From: a virus
Taxonomy: Duplodnaviria > Caudoviricetes
Direction: 5' to 3' (one strand)
DNA length: 64,000 nucleotides
IMG/VR virus record: IMGVR_UViG_3300028797_000100
Coordinates: 32,001-96,000 of that record
Position numbers and translations under genes: made by a program. This document shows positions 27,795-63,338 of this stretch, one piece after another. How positions within the stretch are numbered: position 1 is the stretch's first letter; each line of letters starts with the position of its first letter. The notes under the pieces were generated by a model. That model saw only the letters and a program-made list of their open reading frames with translations. It searched no databases and was not told the origin of the DNA.

Positions 27795-30700
27795 TTAAAT
27801 TATATGAATTGGATCCGTATTCGGATATGTAGAATGTAACCACATTCCATGATACGATTGATCGAGTAAGATGTATACGCTGGTAGACATAAACGGAATT
27901 ATCTTTTTTGTATTTGAGATATCATCGATAGCACCGTCTTCAGCTCTACTTACATACAGCGAGAAATATCTCTTGGATGGACCCGTAACATGAATAGCAT
28001 ACATTCCAGTTGTATCTATATCGAGACCATGCCAATGTTCTTCATCGATCTGTTTAACATGTATAACAAGACCGGCAGCTTTATTGGTTACATCAGATTC
28101 CATTCTATGTGTATTGAAGAACAATGGATCTGTTGCTGCTTCACGACGCCATATCTTATCATAAAGCTTTATGATATCAATGTTATCTATTTCAGCAATA
28201 CCCAATCCAGCCAACTTTGGATGGAATAATGATATTCCATTTATAGTAGGGATGTTGGTGAGTTTATTGAAGTCTGTGTTAGAAGTATCAAATGTCACTG
28301 TAGACAGTATGTCTTCTTCAAGATCATAGTTATTAGGATCATCTGTGATGTTACGATAATAATCATTTATTTTTTCATGATTATTTGCGTTAAATATGTA
28401 TGCTACCTGCTGTTTGTTGATGTTGGTGTTACTTAATACAGCCAATTTGAAATTGGAGTAAGTATTACCATTGATATCAATATATACATTTCCCTTATGC
28501 ATCAGATCATTATCCGAATCTACATCATCTACAAGTTCGATACACTCAAAGTTTTTGAGTGATTTCATATTGCGTAATTGAATTGATGTAGGTGACAGTA
28601 TGAGAAGATCTTTAGGATCTGTTACATATCTACCATTTACCCAGAATTCATAACGATCTCTAGAAAGTGGAGTAGGAAGATATCCTGTCATATCAATTAC
28701 ACCGTTCTGAGGTATCTTAGCCAACGAGTAACGACAAATACTGATGTATGTTGATTTAACAACTTTGACATCTTCATTCTGAGTCTGATCTATTACCAGA
28801 CGTCTATCATGTGCATTACGTTTAACATCGGATATTGGTAAACGTGTCTGATTCCTCGAGTCATAATAATACTCAAATGGATTATGTACATCAGAATTAT
28901 CTTCCATGATTGTGTCAGGTACATCCTTGGCATATTTGATTTCCAATGTAACATTAACATCTGTATTCTGTGGGGCATCATTCATTATAAGCATGAACTC
29001 TTCTGGGATCTCACGATACAAAGCGTAATCAGCAGGTACTGTTACCCAGTCGTCATAAATATCTTCACTGTCAATTGTAACAGTTACTACTACGACACCG
29101 CCGCATGAATCATACATGTCATCCTTGAATACAGTACATACGAATTGTCCTTCTGTGTAGTTAGGTAATGTCGAATCTGTTATTGTGATAACTTGTGCAG
29201 AATCAGAGTATGATGTTACACCTTCAAACATTATTGATGATATATTACCATCATACATTGAGAGATCATTGTTTGATATACAGATGAGCTTTACATGTTC
29301 ATTCTCGGTAAATGAATCGATTGGAGCAGTAATTCTTGTTGAGTATTGATGCTGATGGAATTGACGTTGTGTTGTCAGTCCGGTAAATGGAGATTTAACT
29401 TTGAATTTATTGATATCATGATATGTATGTGTAATGCCACCATATTCCACAGTAACATCACACAGCCTGAATACTGGAGCATCAGTATATTTACCAGAAC
29501 GACGAATACGTTTAATGGTTATTTCACCCGCATCAGTTGATGTGGTAGAATACTTTTCATAACCATCAAATTGTTTACGTATTCTGATATCATAGTAAGG
29601 ATCTGTATGAGCGTCTTCTTTATCCAATACAAGTAATGGTTTAAACTTAACCTCGCATGTATTTGTATTCATGAGAACGTCATCGAATACATCGGATTTA
29701 TCATATGCAAAGTAAACGAGTATCTTATTTGAATATGAGAATCCATTAGATGGAGTTATTGTGATACTTGTCATAACACGATCAGTTGTATAGTCATCAC
29801 ATTCATCGATCTTAACACCGTTTTCAACGTTGTATGAAACTGAATATGTTGATGGATCTATCCACAGTTTGTGCTCCCAGTCATATAGATATACTTCTAG
29901 ATCATCTGTATACAATAGATCACCAATCTTTGGAATGAATGTTGGTGAGAACTTATCTGCAGATCCATTGTCAATGTAGATTAATGCTGCATCATTCGAT
30001 ATAACGTTGAACCAAGTTGTTTTACCTTCTAACTGGTAAATCATTTGATTCATACGTTCAACGAGTTTCTTGTTAACATTCTTTCTGTCACGTACTTCTG
30101 CCATACGGATTATGAAACGTGTGTATTCATAACGATGTGTATTTGGATCCAGAGTTGGATCATTCTTAAGTCTGAAATCCATCTTTGATAACTCAATATC
30201 ATCATCACGCACTGCAGCCAAAGCTTGATCTCTGATTGATGTAAATGTCTCAACTTCTTTACGCCAAATCAAATGTTCGTTTGGTTCGAACTTGAGAACG
30301 GGATACTGTTCAGGAAGTGATTTGACATTGAAATTATGATTGATCATGTTCATCTGCAAAGTGTCTTGATCATTTGCAACGAATCCTTCACCAACATAAA
30401 TGAATCTGCTAGTCTTGGATTCTTCGTCGATGAATCTATTATCAATGTCTTCATTAAACATCCACTTCAAACGTGAATAAACATATGGGGCATCGGATGT
30501 TACTGTTAATGGATCACCAGGAAGTGTATAACAGTTGATATGATCAACATCCATTACTGTTGTATCCCAGATTGGTTCGTAATATGAATTCAATGAGGTG
30601 TCAGAATACTCATCGATGAAGTTTCTGATACTATCATCAATTACTTCACATTCTATAGGACCACTCAAGAGTGTTGATACTGTCGTTGAGTTTGTCACAT

Positions 30701-33700
30701 TCAACCATGTAGCGTTCCACTGATCTACTTCAGCTTCCATGAAACCTTTGTTCATAGAATGATCCACAGAAGTTACTATTGCAGGGAATACATACGAACC
30801 ATTCAATGCTTTGATATAGATAGTTTCTCCTTCAAAGTATTTACCATTAACTGATTCGGATGGATGTAAGATCTGACATGGCTTGAAGTACATGTGTGAA
30901 CATTCTTTGTGTCCATGATCAGCTATACTCATTCTATTGATTGTCTGGTTTTCGATAAATACTCTATCTACAGAACCAGGATTCCATGTTACAGGATTAA
31001 GAATATATTCCGACTCATGATCAAGTTGTGTATAATGATTACCCAACAACATTTCATAGTTCATCGGTGCGGGTAATTCATTCAATACCTTACCATCATT
31101 ATTAACTTCAAATGATTCATGATGATCTTCGAAGTCAAGAACTGTTGTTTCTGTGTTGATTATCTGATTGACCTCACCACCCTTGTCGGCAGTACTGCCA
31201 GCACGAATGAATGACATTGAACAATCGGAAATGGTTCCAATTGATGTACCTGCATCAGATAATACATACGCAGTCAATCCGGTAAGATCAGTTCCTCTGA
31301 AGAAGATATATTCGCAGATACTGGATAAACCTGATATGGTGTAATTGGTTCCATCATATGAAGTGTTAAGCTTAAAGAACAGATGATGATCTCCAGCAAT
31401 ACTTGGACCATATGGGGCAAGTGTATGTGGTGTACCATCAGGAATCTTTATAGCAAGTAAGAATGGCTTTGTATTGTAAGTTGTGGATGTCAAATTAGGA
31501 ACGTCGATTGTGTTATAAGTAAAGATATCAAATATGATATCGTTGTAGATCTTATCACAGAATCTTGAATATGGATTGATGTAAGAATTATAGAACGCTG
31601 TCGACAGGTTCTTTATACGTGAATCAAGTAAATCAAGTACAGGATCGACTGCTGTGATATAGTCTACGAGCTTCAAATATAAATCATGGAATACTTGATC
31701 GGAATATGTATTGTTCGGATTATATGCAGTGTGTTCATCAAGTGTATCGAGTATATGAAGATCTATACCATGTAACCACTTCTTGTACTGATATGGATTC
31801 ATTGGTGTATTAATCTTCTTGAGATGAATGTATAATCTACGAACACGTTCCTTAACGTCATTATCGAAGCCGAAGTTGTAGTATACGTATTTCAGAATAC
31901 CAAGGAGACTATCATCTCTAGCTGTGACAAATGATATGAATGACTTTGTAACCGTTTCATTTGGAAGATATATGATAGAAGCACACAGTTCCTTCAATGA
32001 GTTAAGCTCATTAACGAAAGCATTCTGTCTGATCATATTAATGATGTCTTCTGTTGTTAAACCATCAACTGTGATGTTTGCGATATTACCATTGTAATCC
32101 AAATCAAGAATCTTTTCCTTGATAATATTGATTGCTTCCGTGGCTCTATCGGCTATAGAAGACATGTTGTATGTCGTCTTGTAGTTTGTCTGGAGTTCTG
32201 ATATATAGTCATATATAGCATCCAGATATGTTGTAAGTAATCTACAGAATTCAACTGTATCTTTGTATGAAACAACTGATCCAGAGTACACTGTGATGTC
32301 ACTATACTGAACATAGTATTCGTCATGAATACCGTCTGCATCAATAAGAGGGAACTTTATATCGGGATCATATACATTTAATACGAAACGATATGGATCG
32401 TATAAATGCTGGATACCAGAGCCATTCATCAGTAATGGTAATCCATAATATGCAAGTGCACTACGTCCTGCTGGTAATGATGCATCTGTTGGGAATCTAG
32501 CAGGTGAGATTGAATACTGAGAATACGAGATTGGATAACGCACGTTACTCAATGCAGATGAGATGTCAATGTCAGCATATCTATTCGAGAACTTTCTTTT
32601 TGTAAGATCTCTATAGAAGTATGCTTGAAGTTTGTCTACATTGTTATTCAGCAATGACAGAGTATAGAACAAGAAGTTTATAGAAAAAGGTCCACGATCT
32701 GAATCTTCAGTATACTCAATTACATTGTCTGAAGTTTTATTTGAATCTTCATAGTTTATGTCAGAAGGATATACGGATATGATTGATTCACCATCAATCT
32801 TTCGCTTTAATATCTTTGACAATACATGAATGATAGTCTCATCACTGTAGTTTCTATAAAGCATCTTACTAATCTTAGCAAGTCTACTTTCGGCATCCCA
32901 ATAACGAATACAACCATTATACTTGCACATCTCATCATAGAACAAATCAAAGTCTACAACAGTGTCAAGATCGAAATGTTCAATGAATGGATCCGCAGGA
33001 TCTTCTGTATCAGTATATAATACGAAGAACTTGAATATCTCATTACCGGTTAAACCTTCATTGATATAGAATGTGTTTCCTATACCATGGAAATGTCTGA
33101 TTTTCGGATAATCAAATATCCATGAATTATATTCCTGAGAATATTTCAATGTGATGAAAGACTGTTCTGCAATAGGACGATTGAATCTTGAAGCATCTTC
33201 CTTCTCATAGAAGTTTGTTTGGATGTTGATTGCTCTGGAGAATGGTAAAAGTTTATCATCCAAGAATGGTTCACATATTTCGGTCACAGTAATCTCGAAG
33301 TTGTTACCATACAATTCATCGAATGTATGTGTTTGTATATCTTCGGCATGTGTGACGTCATAATAGAATCTGGATATATTGTCAGCGAGCTTATTGAACT
33401 TATTGATCTTTGCGGTCGGTACAAGTGATGTTATTATAGCACCACGATAGTAGTCCTGAGTCATCTTTGACATATCAACAAACATCTCATACAACTTTGG
33501 TCTGATGTTATTTAAGTAATCAACCATATCTGGTGTAGAACCCATAGTGAATCTACCAATATTATTCATCAATGGCTTATACTTCATCAGATTCTTATAC
33601 AATGACAAGCAAGCTGTAATTGTATCGAATGTGTAAGATGTATCTCTATCGATGGTAATAGGAGGAGTACATATTTCAAGGTCATTCGTTGATGATGCGG

Positions 33701-34763
33701 TTGATTCTACTACTAATGACCCTTCAGGCGTTCTCAACTTCTCATACTTATCATCATATACCAACTTATTCTCCATGATGTCATAATAATTGACAGCTGG
33801 GAATATGTTAGGTACTTCATGGAAGTATTTGAGTAAGTAGATGTCAACATTGACAGTCTTCATGTTGCCATTCGTAATCATGTTCATTGTATGATCTTGA
33901 ACATCATTGATTACGAAACCTGATGCATTGAAATAACCGAAGTTTGGTACAGTGTTGATGCTCTTATCATATGAAGTGTTATGAATGTTCACGAGACACT
34001 TCATACCATTTACTTCTTCCTTCTTGATATCAATATCAGTATAAGGGATGAAGCCTTTGGTAATATAAGATGTATTAATGGAACGGGTATACATCTTACA
34101 TCTGTCAAGCTTATACACAATGAAGTCAACTTCGTAATTTGGTTTCCAACCTATCTTGAATTTGAAACCATGATCATCTATTGCAACATAAGCATCGTTA
34201 GAAATGAAACCATTTGCAGAGCATACGATACAGAAATCAAGCACATCAGCAATTCTTGAATTATTGAATTCACTAATGCTGAGATATTTGTCATTTTCTG
34301 TTATATGCATTTCATGAATTCTTTGACGAATGAATTCATCTCTATGACCGAAATGCAACTGATTGAACGGAGCATCGATAATCTTATAATGTGTAAAACT
34401 CTCAGTTGCAACGTTCTTTTTATCAGCTAATGTCGTATGGAATATAACAGCATGTGTGTTTACCAGGTTCCTCGACATTGTATTTCTTAAAGAAGTACGA
34501 TATGCTTCACTGAGTGATTTATCGAGATCTTCAAATGTATAATTAGATCTACCCATGAGATCCAATAACATATCAAAACCTTTATTGTTACCTTGAACAA
34601 TGTCTGGTTGTTCGGCAATCAATTCCGATTCCATATCAACGAGCTTCTTAAATCTTTCAGTGAGATTATAATTCTTCATATCAATGAAAGATTCTTCTCT
34701 TCCTCGTTTACCGGTACGATATTGGTGTTGCCTGAAGAACCAGTTATTGAAATTCATTTTCAA
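27795..34763 (-). CDS. Very large virion structural protein (2322 aa; tail/baseplate candidate)
   Basis: Uninterrupted ORF, RBS GAAAGGAA, late-type promoter upstream; C-terminal PLSRDRYEFWVNGRY...LSPTSIQL; exact function not recognised. Confidence 0.6.
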   Translation of the reverse strand: MKMNFNNWFFRQHQYRTGKRGREESFIDMKNYNLTERFKKLVDMESELIAEQPDIVQGNNKGFDMLLDLMGRSNYTFEDLDKSLSEAYRTSLRNTMSRNLVNTHAVIFHTTLADKKNVATESFTHYKIIDAPFNQLHFGHRDEFIRQRIHEMHITENDKYLSISEFNNSRIADVLDFCIVCSANGFISNDAYVAIDDHGFKFKIGWKPNYEVDFIVYKLDRCKMYTRSINTSYITKGFIPYTDIDIKKEEVNGMKCLVNIHNTSYDKSINTVPNFGYFNASGFVINDVQDHTMNMITNGNMKTVNVDIYLLKYFHEVPNIFPAVNYYDIMENKLVYDDKYEKLRTPEGSLVVESTASSTNDLEICTPPITIDRDTSYTFDTITACLSLYKNLMKYKPLMNNIGRFTMGSTPDMVDYLNNIRPKLYEMFVDMSKMTQDYYRGAIITSLVPTAKINKFNKLADNISRFYYDVTHAEDIQTHTFDELYGNNFEITVTEICEPFLDDKLLPFSRAINIQTNFYEKEDASRFNRPIAEQSFITLKYSQEYNSWIFDYPKIRHFHGIGNTFYINEGLTGNEIFKFFVLYTDTEDPADPFIEHFDLDTVVDFDLFYDEMCKYNGCIRYWDAESRLAKISKMLYRNYSDETIIHVLSKILKRKIDGESIISVYPSDINYEDSNKTSDNVIEYTEDSDRGPFSINFLFYTLSLLNNNVDKLQAYFYRDLTKRKFSNRYADIDISSALSNVRYPISYSQYSISPARFPTDASLPAGRSALAYYGLPLLMNGSGIQHLYDPYRFVLNVYDPDIKFPLIDADGIHDEYYVQYSDITVYSGSVVSYKDTVEFCRLLTTYLDAIYDYISELQTNYKTTYNMSSIADRATEAINIIKEKILDLDYNGNIANITVDGLTTEDIINMIRQNAFVNELNSLKELCASIIYLPNETVTKSFISFVTARDDSLLGILKYVYYNFGFDNDVKERVRRLYIHLKKINTPMNPYQYKKWLHGIDLHILDTLDEHTAYNPNNTYSDQVFHDLYLKLVDYITAVDPVLDLLDSRIKNLSTAFYNSYINPYSRFCDKIYNDIIFDIFTYNTIDVPNLTSTTYNTKPFLLAIKIPDGTPHTLAPYGPSIAGDHHLFFKLNTSYDGTNYTISGLSSICEYIFFRGTDLTGLTAYVLSDAGTSIGTISDCSMSFIRAGSTADKGGEVNQIINTETTVLDFEDHHESFEVNNDGKVLNELPAPMNYEMLLGNHYTQLDHESEYILNPVTWNPGSVDRVFIENQTINRMSIADHGHKECSHMYFKPCQILHPSESVNGKYFEGETIYIKALNGSYVFPAIVTSVDHSMNKGFMEAEVDQWNATWLNVTNSTTVSTLLSGPIECEVIDDSIRNFIDEYSDTSLNSYYEPIWDTTVMDVDHINCYTLPGDPLTVTSDAPYVYSRLKWMFNEDIDNRFIDEESKTSRFIYVGEGFVANDQDTLQMNMINHNFNVKSLPEQYPVLKFEPNEHLIWRKEVETFTSIRDQALAAVRDDDIELSKMDFRLKNDPTLDPNTHRYEYTRFIIRMAEVRDRKNVNKKLVERMNQMIYQLEGKTTWFNVISNDAALIYIDNGSADKFSPTFIPKIGDLLYTDDLEVYLYDWEHKLWIDPSTYSVSYNVENGVKIDECDDYTTDRVMTSITITPSNGFSYSNKILVYFAYDKSDVFDDVLMNTNTCEVKFKPLLVLDKEDAHTDPYYDIRIRKQFDGYEKYSTTSTDAGEITIKRIRRSGKYTDAPVFRLCDVTVEYGGITHTYHDINKFKVKSPFTGLTTQRQFHQHQYSTRITAPIDSFTENEHVKLICISNNDLSMYDGNISSIMFEGVTSYSDSAQVITITDSTLPNYTEGQFVCTVFKDDMYDSCGGVVVVTVTIDSEDIYDDWVTVPADYALYREIPEEFMLIMNDAPQNTDVNVTLEIKYAKDVPDTIMEDNSDVHNPFEYYYDSRNQTRLPISDVKRNAHDRRLVIDQTQNEDVKVVKSTYISICRYSLAKIPQNGVIDMTGYLPTPLSRDRYEFWVNGRYVTDPKDLLILSPTSIQLRNMKSLKNFECIELVDDVDSDNDLMHKGNVYIDINGNTYSNFKLAVLSNTNINKQQVAYIFNANNHEKINDYYRNITDDPNNYDLEEDILSTVTFDTSNTDFNKLTNIPTINGISLFHPKLAGLGIAEIDNIDIIKLYDKIWRREAATDPLFFNTHRMESDVTNKAAGLVIHVKQIDEEHWHGLDIDTTGMYAIHVTGPSKRYFSLYVSRAEDGAIDDISNTKKIIPFMSTSVYILLDQSYHGMWLHSTYPNTDPIHII

Positions 34764-34808
34764 AATTGATCATTCCTTTCTATAATATGATCATATTCAT
34801 CGTGAACA

Positions 34809-34942: not shown

Positions 34943-35839
34943 ATGGCACGTATTAAGAAAACTGCTGAGACAGAGGCAGGTAAAACAACACTGTCAGCAA
35001 CCGGAAAGAAGAACTCTTATGATGTAACAATGTGGTTTATTCAGCCACTCTTGGGTTCAGCTCCTTCTGACCCTAACATCTATAAAACCTTTATTGCGTC
35101 AAAGGCTCCTGATGCTCCTACCAGGGAAGAGGAACTTATGACGACAACGGTTGAAAACGTTGCTTCAAGAGGTACAAACGTTTTCCTCAGAAGAAGCAAA
35201 ACCGGTAATCCCACAATCGCTCAGCACGCTCTCAAGGGCTTCTTAAAAGAAAGAGGTACTCAGGAGAACAGAGTTATTGATGGTATATCGATTACCAATC
35301 ATAAGACAAAGATTGTTGGTAACGTTGTTATCAAGCCGACATTCATCGATCTTAACATCCCAGAGGAATTAATCAGAGATACAACTGAAGAGACCTTCAA
35401 GAAAGAAGGATTTGGTTATAGCTCTGCTATTAGATTCCCTGCAGAGCCTGGCAGCAGATTCAGAAGAATCATGCTCCCAACATGTGATCGTCCCCTTCAG
35501 GCAGAAACTCCTCAGGGAAAGATAACATCAATTGCATCTAGTGAGATTGCACCTGCAGGCACATCTATCAATTTCCAGATGGAAGTAGATCAGCTGGCTC
35601 CAACTAAGAAGGATCCTGGTCAGATTGATGAGAGATTAATATCACTCTTTATGACAGGACACCGTCATGGCACAGGTCAGTGGAGAGGCTCTGGAGAATA
35701 TGGAGCTTTCGTTACTGAAGTACGTGATGAAGAAGGAAAGCTCATTTATGAGAACACCACTGAAGTTCTCGGTTGTAATTCCGATGACGCAGACTTCTAT
35801 CAGAAGCTCTGCGACTATATCGATGACAATTGCCTCTAA
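34943..35839 (+). CDS. Stand-alone Cas7/RAMP-fold protein (Vipr-like effector of a putative RNA-guided system)
   Basis: RBS AAGGAGG. RAMP hallmarks in order: YDVTMWFIQPLLGSAP (beta1), GNPTIAQHALKGFLKE (cf. GxPxIPGSSLKGxLR), SEIAPAGTSINFQMEV, and Gly-rich loop GHRHGTGQWRGSGEYGAF. Confidence 0.8.
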   Translation: MARIKKTAETEAGKTTLSATGKKNSYDVTMWFIQPLLGSAPSDPNIYKTFIASKAPDAPTREEELMTTTVENVASRGTNVFLRRSKTGNPTIAQHALKGFLKERGTQENRVIDGISITNHKTKIVGNVVIKPTFIDLNIPEELIRDTTEETFKKEGFGYSSAIRFPAEPGSRFRRIMLPTCDRPLQAETPQGKITSIASSEIAPAGTSINFQMEVDQLAPTKKDPGQIDERLISLFMTGHRHGTGQWRGSGEYGAFVTEVRDEEGKLIYENTTEVLGCNSDDADFYQKLCDYIDDNCL

Positions 35840-35845
35840 TAATAT

Positions 35846-35880
35846 GGGCGGCCCAGTGCCGCCCTTTACTTTAATTTTTT
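35846..35880 (+). terminator. Hairpin/terminator after the RAMP gene
   Basis: GGGCGGC-CCAGT-GCCGCCC followed by a T-rich tail. Confidence 0.6.
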
Positions 35881-35898
35881 GATAGGAGGTAATTGAAG

Positions 35899-36366
35899 AT
35901 GAAAGATGATAGTAAATTTGGTATAGAATTCACTACCAAGGCAAATGAGAGTTTAGAAACAGCTATAGATATACTCTCAAATTTATCACAGTCCGCTATA
36001 ATGGATTTAAGAGATGAGAACCCCAGGTTCAATAAGAACGTTGAGGAACTCACTCAATTAATTTCCGGCAGTCCGGACAAGTTATGGGCACAACATCCGG
36101 AGTATTCATTCATCACATGTTCGAAGAATGGTGACATCAAGTTATCACCTAATGCGAATTGTGAGATAAGATACAATGACAATGTACCATTCTTGCATTA
36201 TCTGAGATCCCGCAAACCTGATGTGTTAGGAGCAATCATAATACTTCAGTGTTTTGTTGAATGCCCCGGCTCTTTAAGTGAATATACTGTTCACTATAAA
36301 GATGGTAATCCAACAAATTTAAAGTTTGCCAATCTTGGATGGGCAAGAAAGTACGTCGGAAGATAA
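35899..36366 (+). CDS. Hypothetical protein between the RAMP gene and the array
   Basis: ATG 35899 lies 9 nt after GGAGG; 155 aa; no recognised family. Confidence 0.7.
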   Translation: MKDDSKFGIEFTTKANESLETAIDILSNLSQSAIMDLRDENPRFNKNVEELTQLISGSPDKLWAQHPEYSFITCSKNGDIKLSPNANCEIRYNDNVPFLHYLRSRKPDVLGAIIILQCFVECPGSLSEYTVHYKDGNPTNLKFANLGWARKYVGR

Positions 36367-36371
36367 GCTCT

Positions 36372-36424
36372 CGTGGAGCTCTAAACCACGCGTTGTCTCC
36401 AACTTATAAAGTTGATGTGAGACA
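36372..36424 (+). other. Structured leader of the array
   Basis: Hairpins CGTGG..CCACG (36372-36390) and TGTCTC/CAACTT-ATA-AAGTTG/GAGACA (36394-36424). Confidence 0.6.
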
Positions 36425-37450
36425 TAAAGTTTAGTTTTGGTTTTGTCTGGTGAAGTTCAGGTAAGGTGGAGTCGTGTAAGATGCCGATTCGTGGCGGTCT
36501 TGTTTGGTTCTATGTGATTTAGGCTAGTGAGGGTTTCGTGATCTGTTACTTTGGATATTCTGTGAGGGTGCGGTGCGGTTACGTCGTGTCCGGTAGGGTT
36601 TGTTCCTGTTTCGTTTTGTGCTGGTGACGCGGGGAGATGTTTGGAAGTGTGACGTAGCGGTTTTGCATTATACCGAAGACGCAGTTATGAATATTAATGT
36701 GTAGGCATAGTTCTAGTAGGTCATGTAATGTGTAATAACGCTGAGGCAGTGTCTTGCAGGGGCCGGTCAGGTAAGGTAGCGTATCACAGTGTACTGGTGT
36801 AGTTTTGTGTGCTGGGATCTGGAATTGTGCTGGTTATGTATCGTGAAATGGAGCTGGGTTCTTTTAGGTTGCGTCATGGTCCGGCATCGTGCGGTGCGGA
36901 AGAGTACTGCGCAGTTTTGTGTGGTTGCGGTGGTGTTATCTCCGGTATGACGATGTTTGGTCTGGCCGGGTGGCGGTACAGCATTGTATTGTACGGGTCA
37001 GTGGTGGGCTGTGCCGAGCTGTGTAGGTTTGGTAAGGCTCGGATCGGCATGATGTCGTCATGGTACTGTATGGTTAGGTTTCAGCATTGTTTTGGTGCAG
37101 CACAGTACGGTGAGATGTAGTTTCGTCTAGGTTGAGTGAGGGATGGATGTGTAATGGCTCGTTGAGTATCGGTGCAGCTAGGTAACGTGTTGAACTGATG
37201 CGTATTGTTTAGTACGGGTTGGGCTAGGTCAGGATCAGAGAGGTCAGGTTAGGTTCTGGTGATGTGTCGTTTGGTATGGCAATGTTTCGCATAGCAACGG
37301 TGTTGCTCGGTACAGTACCGTCACATAGTGCCTGGTTCAGGTAAGGCGAAGTTGGGCTTTGAAGTGCGAAGTGTTGGTGGAGCCTGGTAGGGTCTAATCA
37401 TGTCAAGTGATGGTAGGGGCCGGTCAGGTAACATAGCGATCGCAGTGTAC
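36421..37450 (+). ncRNA. Periodic non-coding array (NNNGY)n punctuated by NNNGGY; putative guide-RNA array
   Basis: About 200 five-nt units, e.g. from 37261: gatgt gtcgt ttggt atggc aatgt ttcgc atagc aacggt gttgc tcggt acagt accgt. G/T-rich against an AT-rich genome; no credible ORF; ends at a terminator. Confidence 0.8.
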
Positions 37451-37461
37451 CAAAAGAATAT

Positions 37462-37494
37462 TCCGGGGCATAATGCCCCGGATATTTTTTTTTT
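37462..37494. terminator. Terminator closing the array and the convergent RNAP gene
   Basis: TCCGGGGCA-TAA-TGCCCCGGA plus T run. Confidence 0.85.
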
Positions 37495-63252: not shown

Positions 63253-63338
63253 GCCGAAGTGATGGAATGGTAGACTTGGCAGACTCAAAATCTGCTGTGA
63301 GCAATCACGTGTGGGTTCGAGTCCCACCTTCGGCACCA
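63253..63338 (+). tRNA. trnL: tRNA-Leu(CAA)
   Basis: Acceptor GCCGAAG/CTTCGGC plus ACCA; D-loop with GGTA; anticodon arm GCAGA-CTCAAAA-TCTGC; long variable arm; T-arm GTGGG-TTCGAGT-CCCAC. Confidence 0.95.

Follow-up and report, generated by a model that had tools for sequence, protein, structure and literature searches.

The two look-alike segments of the analysed DNA are probably old paralogous copies of one block (seven units, ~37 nt) in the guide-RNA array of a Viral Interference Programmable Repeat (VIPR) system, and the differences between them probably reflect constraints acting at the 3' end of that array; we hold this reading with moderate confidence. It is built on direct observations of the repeat, of the orthologues of its copies, of the substitution rates per unit position, of the protein fold and of the linkage between gene and array. 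The analysed stretch of 64,000 nt (referred to as the window) is a part of an IMG/VR virus record of 163.7 kb that is estimated to be 61% complete, and the genome is jumbo-phage-like. Fold, array, gene-array linkage, stagger and viral context, i.e., those defining features of VIPR that can be tested, are all found here, and thus we assign the locus, as known from its sequence and the predicted fold of its protein, as a VIPR system with a staggered NNN-G-Y array.

VIPR systems are the subject of two 2026 bioRxiv preprints (10.64898/2026.04.26.720920 and 10.64898/2026.04.26.720927). Their Vipr protein is a lone, ancestral RAMP, mostly phage-encoded, which binds vrRNAs built from pentamers of the form GGY/NN; the double-stranded DNA target is set by the NN bases, with one base skipped per unit, and perturbation of GGY abolishes silencing (10.64898/2026.04.26.720920). 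The same study reports conserved GGY and hypervariable N bases, seven VIPR types, the alternative repeats NNNGG, YNNNG and NNNNG, 'staggered' arrays in which vrRNAs overlap by 1 nt, and accessory vap genes that can carry HNH domains (10.64898/2026.04.26.720920). In the complex, one protomer is bound per repeat, G1 is read by H17 and D177, G2 by R138 and W178, and Y3 is held in a pocket that includes R179 (10.64898/2026.04.26.720927).

The 298-aa protein encoded upstream of the array has no match in Pfam, PHROG or PADLOC. Two independent fold searches with its AlphaFold2 model (pLDDT 80) returned at their top ranks Cas7-family RAMPs and essentially nothing else, the best matches being Csm3 (9g9a_D, Z 11.3; 6o7h_C, Z 10.6; 6ae2_B, Z 10.3), followed by Cmr4, type IV Csf2, type VII Cas7 and gRAMP. 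The sole PDB sequence match of the family profile, 36pp_D ('SUSP1 Vipr protein'), has an E value of 0.16, which is weak when taken alone, and extends over the G-loop, where GTGQWR of the window protein aligns with GVGDWR of SUSP1, with W247 corresponding to W178, R248 to R179 and Q246 to D177. The model, the fold searches and the weak G-loop match together point to a minimal single-RRM RAMP with a G-loop and a thumb, as defines Vipr; the window protein differs from the ~200-aa forms by an insertion of ~70 aa. The Q246 column is invariant among the aligned homologues (Q in 27/27, where SUSP1 Vipr has D177), and in the arrays of the homologues that bear this residue the first-G position is occupied by G in 17-46% of units only. 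The presence of Q in place of D177 fits the relaxed G at position 3 and may be the structural basis of the difference between NNN-G-Y and NN-GGY units.

Downstream of vipr lies a 157-aa gene, the product of which matches phrog_959 (HNH endonuclease, E 1e-6), with a Pfam HNH_3 match below threshold. A gene of 142-164 aa occupies its place in every jumbo-clade relative fetched, while many loci of 40-kb phages lack this gene and their array directly abuts vipr. On the grounds of the sequence match and synteny, it is a candidate vap gene. The features of the locus are collected in Table 1.

Table 1. Features of the VIPR locus, in window coordinates.
Feature	Coordinates	Strand	Basis and remarks
Sigma-70-like promoter match (weak evidence)	34757..34786	+	Upstream of the Cas7-fold gene; 10/12 consensus
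vipr gene, lone Cas7-fold RAMP protein, 298 aa (P0001)	34943..35839	+	AF2 model, fold searches, G-loop alignment
GC-rich hairpin between vipr and the next gene	35846..35864	+	7 G-C pairs, then TTTACTTTAA
HNH-like gene, 157 aa, candidate vipr-accessory (vap) gene	35893..36366	+	phrog_959 match and synteny
Conserved leader with CGTGG/CCACG hairpin, 5' of the array	36370..36424	+	Aligns with L138 and L005
vrRNA array, ~200 NNN-G-Y units (often NN-GGT)	36430..37450	+	G periodicity, parse; NNNGGT hexamers delimit 5n+1-nt blocks
Internal copy of the duplicated guide block	36758..36794	+	Keeps the 5-nt register; orthologue within L138:2663-2722
Terminal copy of the block, last block of the array	37415..37450	+	35/36 identical to L004:8295-8330
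Small predicted hairpin around the GCGATCGC palindrome, within the terminal copy	37427..37451	+	Predicted in the window and L004
Intrinsic terminator, bidirectional, common to the array and the convergent RNAP beta gene	37462..37492	+	9-bp stem, 7 G-C pairs, then T run

The array is on the vipr strand, with a promoter-like site upstream and a terminator at its end, a context consistent with vrRNA expression, although sigma-70-like sites across the region are no more numerous than expected from shuffled sequence. The terminator is conserved in the related loci L004, L005 and L009, the 96-nt 3' region folds with a z of -4.6, and the convergent neighbour encodes the phage RNAP beta subunit (phrog_3148, 1.5e-134). 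The first 31 nt of the leader (36370-36400, with its hairpin) recur with 90% identity elsewhere in the same phage genome (G000:C1:17147-17177, L002), are kept in the L138 and L005 leaders as well, and could be a phage promoter or regulatory motif. Directly upstream of the locus, on the minus strand, there is a 2322-aa ORF (27795-34763) of unknown function with a faint PHROG match; relatives have equally large ORFs upstream of their loci, and that of L009 carries collagen and phage-fibre domains. A search of Rfam at the gathering threshold yielded a tRNA gene at 63253-63335 (RF00005, 52 bits) and no match in the array; a blastn comparison of the array to GenBank phages yielded no match either.

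Homologues of the 298-aa protein were found in uncultured phages. A search for related loci with this single protein gave none; an alignment was required as the query. All jumbo-clade relatives for which DNA was fetched share the order of RAMP gene, 142-164-aa gene and a gene-free gap of 0.9-2.3 kb, and a same-strand period-5 G signal is present in these gaps at 6/6 loci with DNA (L004-L010). A profile search of IMG/VR revealed 498 more distant relatives (~200 aa, 30-35% identity), most of which lie on contigs of ~40 kb; of 80 loci taken from them, 78 have a period-5 array that directly abuts the gene, upstream or downstream of it and on the same strand. The linkage of vipr and array is thus conserved. 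The assemblies of the closest relatives (L007, L008, L010, L139) are labelled STEW19, XIEF21 and TONG22, resembling ruminant gut metagenomes, and judging by these record names the phage is probably from the rumen or ruminant gut.

Both copies of the block lie in a gene-free stretch (36367-37492) that is rich in G and T (G 377, T 351, A 206, C 157), and in which the autocorrelation of G reaches 0.32 (lag 5) and 0.21 (lag 10), with a period of 5.1 nt. Dynamic-programming parsing resolved the array into 188 pentamers, for the most part of the forms nnnGT or nnGGT, with 26 NNNGGT hexamers between them. Among the window units, 85% have G at position 4, 70% have T and 85% a pyrimidine at position 5, and 37% have G at position 3; when all arrays are pooled, G occupies position 4 in 86% and position 3 in 34% of pentamers, position 5 is rarely G, and the hexamers read AANGGH, with GG in 92% of them. 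Hence, the gene has beside it non-coding tandem pentamers in which G(G)Y is constant and the N bases vary. Because position 3 is G in so few window units and evolves like positions 1-2 (see below), it is not a part of the scaffold here; as judged from the sequence, the unit is NNN-G-Y and position 3 acts as a variable base. The spacing from hexamer to hexamer peaks at 26, 31, 36 and 41 nt, i.e., at 5n+1 (n = 1357 hexamers), which in sequence terms fits the 'staggered' vrRNA arrays with their offset of 1 nt (10.64898/2026.04.26.720920).

The similarity of arrays across phages is patchy. A 167-nt stretch (window 37020-37177 vs. L010:8120-8286) is 81% identical in phages whose Vipr proteins are only 53% identical, and the similarity between the arrays of the window and L004 is partly re-ordered. 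This patchiness gives the arrays the look of mosaics of kept and replaced blocks, and points to exchange of array pieces between phages or to some guides being strongly selected. Blocks are repeated in other arrays as well. Three tandem, nearly identical 36-nt copies of the block CATGGA atagc atggt tcaga actga gtaga tacga are present in a 40-kb-class phage (L034:4533-4640), a clear case of recent block duplication, and the array of L009 contains a 59-nt repeat. Among the NNN triplets of the pooled L011-L090 arrays, TAG and its complement CTA occur at ~0.4 of the expected frequency; no comparable deficit is seen for the other stop triplets, and there is no sign of the stop-codon depletion in NNN triplets that codon-phased guides would entail.

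The letters of the two segments had been reported exactly (37 nt for the internal and 36 nt for the terminal copy). The copies match at 33/37 positions and are separated by three substitutions and one 1-nt gap. From the internal to the terminal copy, unit 4 differs by G>C at position 3 and G>A at position 4, unit 5 has lost T at position 5, and unit 6 differs by A>G at position 4. Within the array, the copies recognise each other in blastn with E ~1e-7; in 2000 shuffles of the dinucleotides of the 202 parsed units, at least eight identical ones in succession never occurred (0/2000), and an ungapped run of five occurred in 50/2000. That arrays evolve by segment duplication, as the earlier note proposed, is borne out by this pair, which ends exactly at the end of a 5n+1 block, and by the block repeats of L034 and L009. 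The identity of all eight leading dinucleotides also holds, under the most parsimonious placement of the gap, and the differences do fall in positions 3-5 only; since 21 of the 37 columns lie in these positions and there are but four differences, such a pattern has a chance probability of ~0.09-0.13 and is weak as evidence.

The earlier note took this pattern to mean that positions 1-2 carry the selected information and are kept on a scaffold that drifts. The first part of this view, in which the variable bases serve as guides, agrees with the published VIPR code; the second, conserved dinucleotides on a drifting scaffold, is not supported: the substitution rates per pentamer position in orthologous arrays show the reverse, with N bases changing fastest and the position-4 G conserved. 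Among orthologous arrays, 21 non-overlapping pairs with an identity of 78-97% across 300 nt or more have mismatch rates of 0.109, 0.105, 0.106, 0.017 and 0.079 at positions 1-5 (chi-square p ~1e-27), and of 0.005-0.014 at the hexamer GG. A control that avoids circularity by taking the phase from the two neighbouring units only gave 0.123, 0.135, 0.139, 0.029 and 0.101, and the same trend is seen in two alignments of the window clade, where numbers are small (0.05, 0.21, 0.25, 0.03 and 0.14). The position-4 G is ~6 times more conserved than N positions 1-3. Fourfold-degenerate sites of the adjacent vipr gene differ in the same pairs by ~0.16 on average, so that, in blocks that can be aligned, the N positions evolve about two thirds as fast as synonymous sites. 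In other intra-array repeats, positions 1-2 differ at least as often (7/79) as positions 3-5 (5/126). In the block itself, compared across its four homologous copies (window internal, L138 internal, window terminal and L004 terminal), variable sites number 1, 2, 4, 2 and 2 at positions 1-5, the even spread that the earlier note had regarded as incompatible with its claim. The pair does not show that positions 1-2 are selectively kept on a drifting scaffold of positions 3-5, and the conserved G with variable N bases, including position 3, is in agreement with the conserved GGY and hypervariable N bases of the preprint (10.64898/2026.04.26.720920).

Each copy has an orthologue of its own. The internal copy corresponds to a block of L138 (aligned 2663-2722) with homologous flanks and the same downstream order, which reads agtgt cccgt gaggt aacgt aacgt atcac agggt and differs from the window internal copy at 9/37 positions, three dinucleotide positions among them. 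The counterpart of the terminal copy is found in L004, at the orthologous end of the array, where the units that break the pentamer grammar in its 3' half (aacat, agcga, tcgc) are all preserved. The Vipr proteins of the window, L004 and L138 are 71-78% identical to one another; that of L139, which is on a contig of only 1.2 kb, has 93% identity. Since the internal copy has its orthologue in L138 and the terminal copy in L004, both copies are probably older than the divergence of these three phages. Polarisation by the single outgroup copy of L138, whose contig ends before the terminal region, L004 being devoid of the internal copy, assigns three of the four differences to the terminal copy (G>A at position 4 of unit 4, the loss of T, and the A>G change that created GCGATCGC) and one to the window internal copy (C>G at position 3 of unit 4). 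Under family-wide rates, the probability that two of three substitutions hit position 4 is ~0.005, which argues that the terminal copy is under a constraint unlike that of ordinary units. Its non-canonical form is almost unchanged in L004, and the four differences would therefore reflect different constraints at the 3' end of the array. The possibility that the internal copy is a former array end was rejected, as no remnant of a terminator or tail follows it and the orthologous array continues in L138.

The similarity of the copies could also be due to concerted evolution, in which they were homogenised by gene conversion, recombination or exchange with co-infecting relatives. The paralogues differ at 4/37 positions, fewer than separate the two internal orthologues (9/37), the window internal copy is identical to the terminal lineage over its first 18 nt, where L138 differs at 4 positions, and the mosaic nature of arrays, as in the stretch shared with L010, is in line with such exchange. 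The 3' half of the internal copy, however, retains L138-like states (T, atcac), which means that any conversion was partial, and, there being a single outgroup, the data are explained just as well by changes confined to the L138 lineage. The identical first 18 nt could be due to partial gene conversion, to selection that keeps a common guide or to such L138-lineage changes, and we consider concerted evolution as the source of the overall similarity unlikely.

The terminal block and the terminator are at least 97% identical in the window and L004, whereas the ~80 nt just upstream are about half identical, and the block may be so well conserved in L004 simply because, the array being a mosaic, it was inherited together with the conserved terminator. 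The four differences between the copies all fall within a hairpin that the terminal form is predicted to adopt, both in the window and in L004; no hairpin is predicted for the internal copy, which cannot form it. This hairpin alone has -6.3 kcal/mol and a z of ~0, i.e., it is not more stable than shuffled sequences, and it exhibits no covariation, L004 being identical there, and for these reasons a role of cap or tail can only be hypothesised. It seems to us rather improbable that the terminal block with its hairpin is a dedicated 3' cap made from a re-purposed guide duplicate, or else that the copies are deliberately redundant guides that hit one site of a competitor twice. In function, such a cap may correspond to the pseudoknot tail of type II vrRNA.

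Redundancy of guides in its simpler form would mean that selection keeps the dinucleotide string for the same target and lets the constant bases drift freely. The target of type II VIPR is indeed set by the NN bases alone (10.64898/2026.04.26.720920), and the paralogues differ at 0/16 NN bases, while the internal orthologues of the window and L138 differ at 3/16. Nevertheless, the pattern of the pair has a chance probability of ~0.1, and the constant G is ~6 times more conserved than N family-wide. One of the differences between the copies is at position 3, which behaves here as a variable base and probably as a guide base. Since GGY perturbation abolishes silencing (10.64898/2026.04.26.720920), the terminal copy, devoid of a position-4 G and of one register base, is unlikely to present units 5-8 in the same way as the internal one. 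A search for targets with the shared dinucleotide string, proposed in the earlier note, revealed none above chance. The remote scans, which require exact matches and are therefore of low sensitivity, gave for the 8-unit NNx pattern (16 specified bases) 20 matches in IMG/VR (~11 unrelated sites) vs. 27 for the reversed-order control, and in 596 Gb of prokaryote genomes >120 matches scattered across phyla, with ~280 expected by chance; the 11-unit NNx pattern (internal block) and the 7-unit NNNx pattern had 0 matches. In the local search, which covered ~1 Mb of related phage DNA (2.06 Mb on both strands) and the phage's own genome, the 959 unique blocks of all arrays showed no excess over reversed-order controls under the rules NN, NNx, NNxx, NNN and NNNx. 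An exact scan of metagenome_contigs and viral_contigs for either copy, with one degenerate pattern, produced 0 matches as well. Taking both sides into account, we find selection for a common target a doubtful explanation of the pair.

That the similarity is a mere by-product of low-complexity periodic composition, in which units that are in phase have G at position 4 and T at position 5 in common by default and the array contains short motifs such as GGTCAGGTAAGGT six times, is refuted by the shuffles, by the blastn score and by the separate orthologue of each copy, and we regard it as next to impossible.

According to the preferred reading, i.e., old paralogous blocks of which the last one is constrained by its place at the 3' end, the system would consist of Vipr, the HNH-like accessory protein and the 1-kb staggered NNN-G-Y array that ends in a terminator. 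By analogy to the published systems, the array would be transcribed and processed to vrRNAs that form a filament with the protein, the N bases acting as guides. Each pentamer would be bound by one Vipr protomer, as in the published mechanism, and Vipr would sequester the constant G(G)Y and expose the variable bases, which would undergo gapped pairing with the DNA of competing elements. Duplication, loss and exchange of blocks would let the array grow and reshuffle. The internal copy would represent an ordinary guide, which has kept the 5-nt register and drifted from its L138 counterpart, while the terminal copy, which abuts the terminator, would have lost a position-4 G and one register base and gained the GCGATCGC palindrome.

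With this locus, the recently described VIPR systems gain a jumbo-phage example. The comparative data put numbers on the evolution of these arrays: the position-4 G and the GG of block-starting hexamers are strongly conserved, and whole blocks are duplicated, lost and exchanged. They are useful for the annotation of NNN-G-Y arrays, in which position 3 should not be treated as scaffold. What goes beyond the two VIPR preprints is the quantified per-position evolution of NNN-G-Y units and the conserved non-canonical terminal block.

Among known systems, the Cas7 backbone of class 1 CRISPR (Csm3, Cmr4, Csf2) provides the best structural matches (Z 8-11) and shares with Vipr the principle of a thumb that periodically interrupts guide pairing. 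The period is, however, 6 nt in class 1 Cas7 and 5 nt here, and the present array is not built from acquired spacers. A class 1 CRISPR-Cas array was considered and rejected, as tandem-repeat and repeat finders revealed no CRISPR-like repeat-spacer array in the window and the period is 5.1 nt; none of the four neighbouring proteins scanned matched CRISPR-associated families. TRAP-like rings, G-quadruplex strings, pac sites and Chi decoys were also among the candidates and were dropped once the fold and the literature had identified the system.

The type II VIPR of Escherichia phage SUSP1 (PDB 36PP; 10.64898/2026.04.26.720927) has in common with the window system the RAMP fold and the W and R of the G-loop, and, if binding is SUSP1-like, one 5-nt unit per protomer would apply here as well. 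In the case of SUSP1, discrete vrRNAs of ~100 nt contain 9-16 strict GGY/NN repeats and a pseudoknot tail, whereas the array described here is a continuous one of 1 kb. Moreover, G1 is strict in SUSP1 and read by D177, while here its counterpart at position 3 is relaxed to 37% G and the corresponding residue is Q.

The staggered VIPR arrays of the preprint (10.64898/2026.04.26.720920, fig. S17-S18) share with the window locus a phage lone RAMP gene beside a same-strand non-coding pentamer array. Further common features are a small accessory gene (a candidate one here), which may carry an HNH domain, blocks offset by 1 nt (5n+1), and variable N with constant G and Y (10.64898/2026.04.26.720920). 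Those arrays were presented without RNA-sequencing verification and without a targeting rule for NNN-type units, and their description includes neither a duplicated block nor a non-canonical terminal form (10.64898/2026.04.26.720920). Unlike them, the array described here belongs to a jumbo-phage-like genome and is accompanied by a Vipr protein with a ~70-aa insertion.
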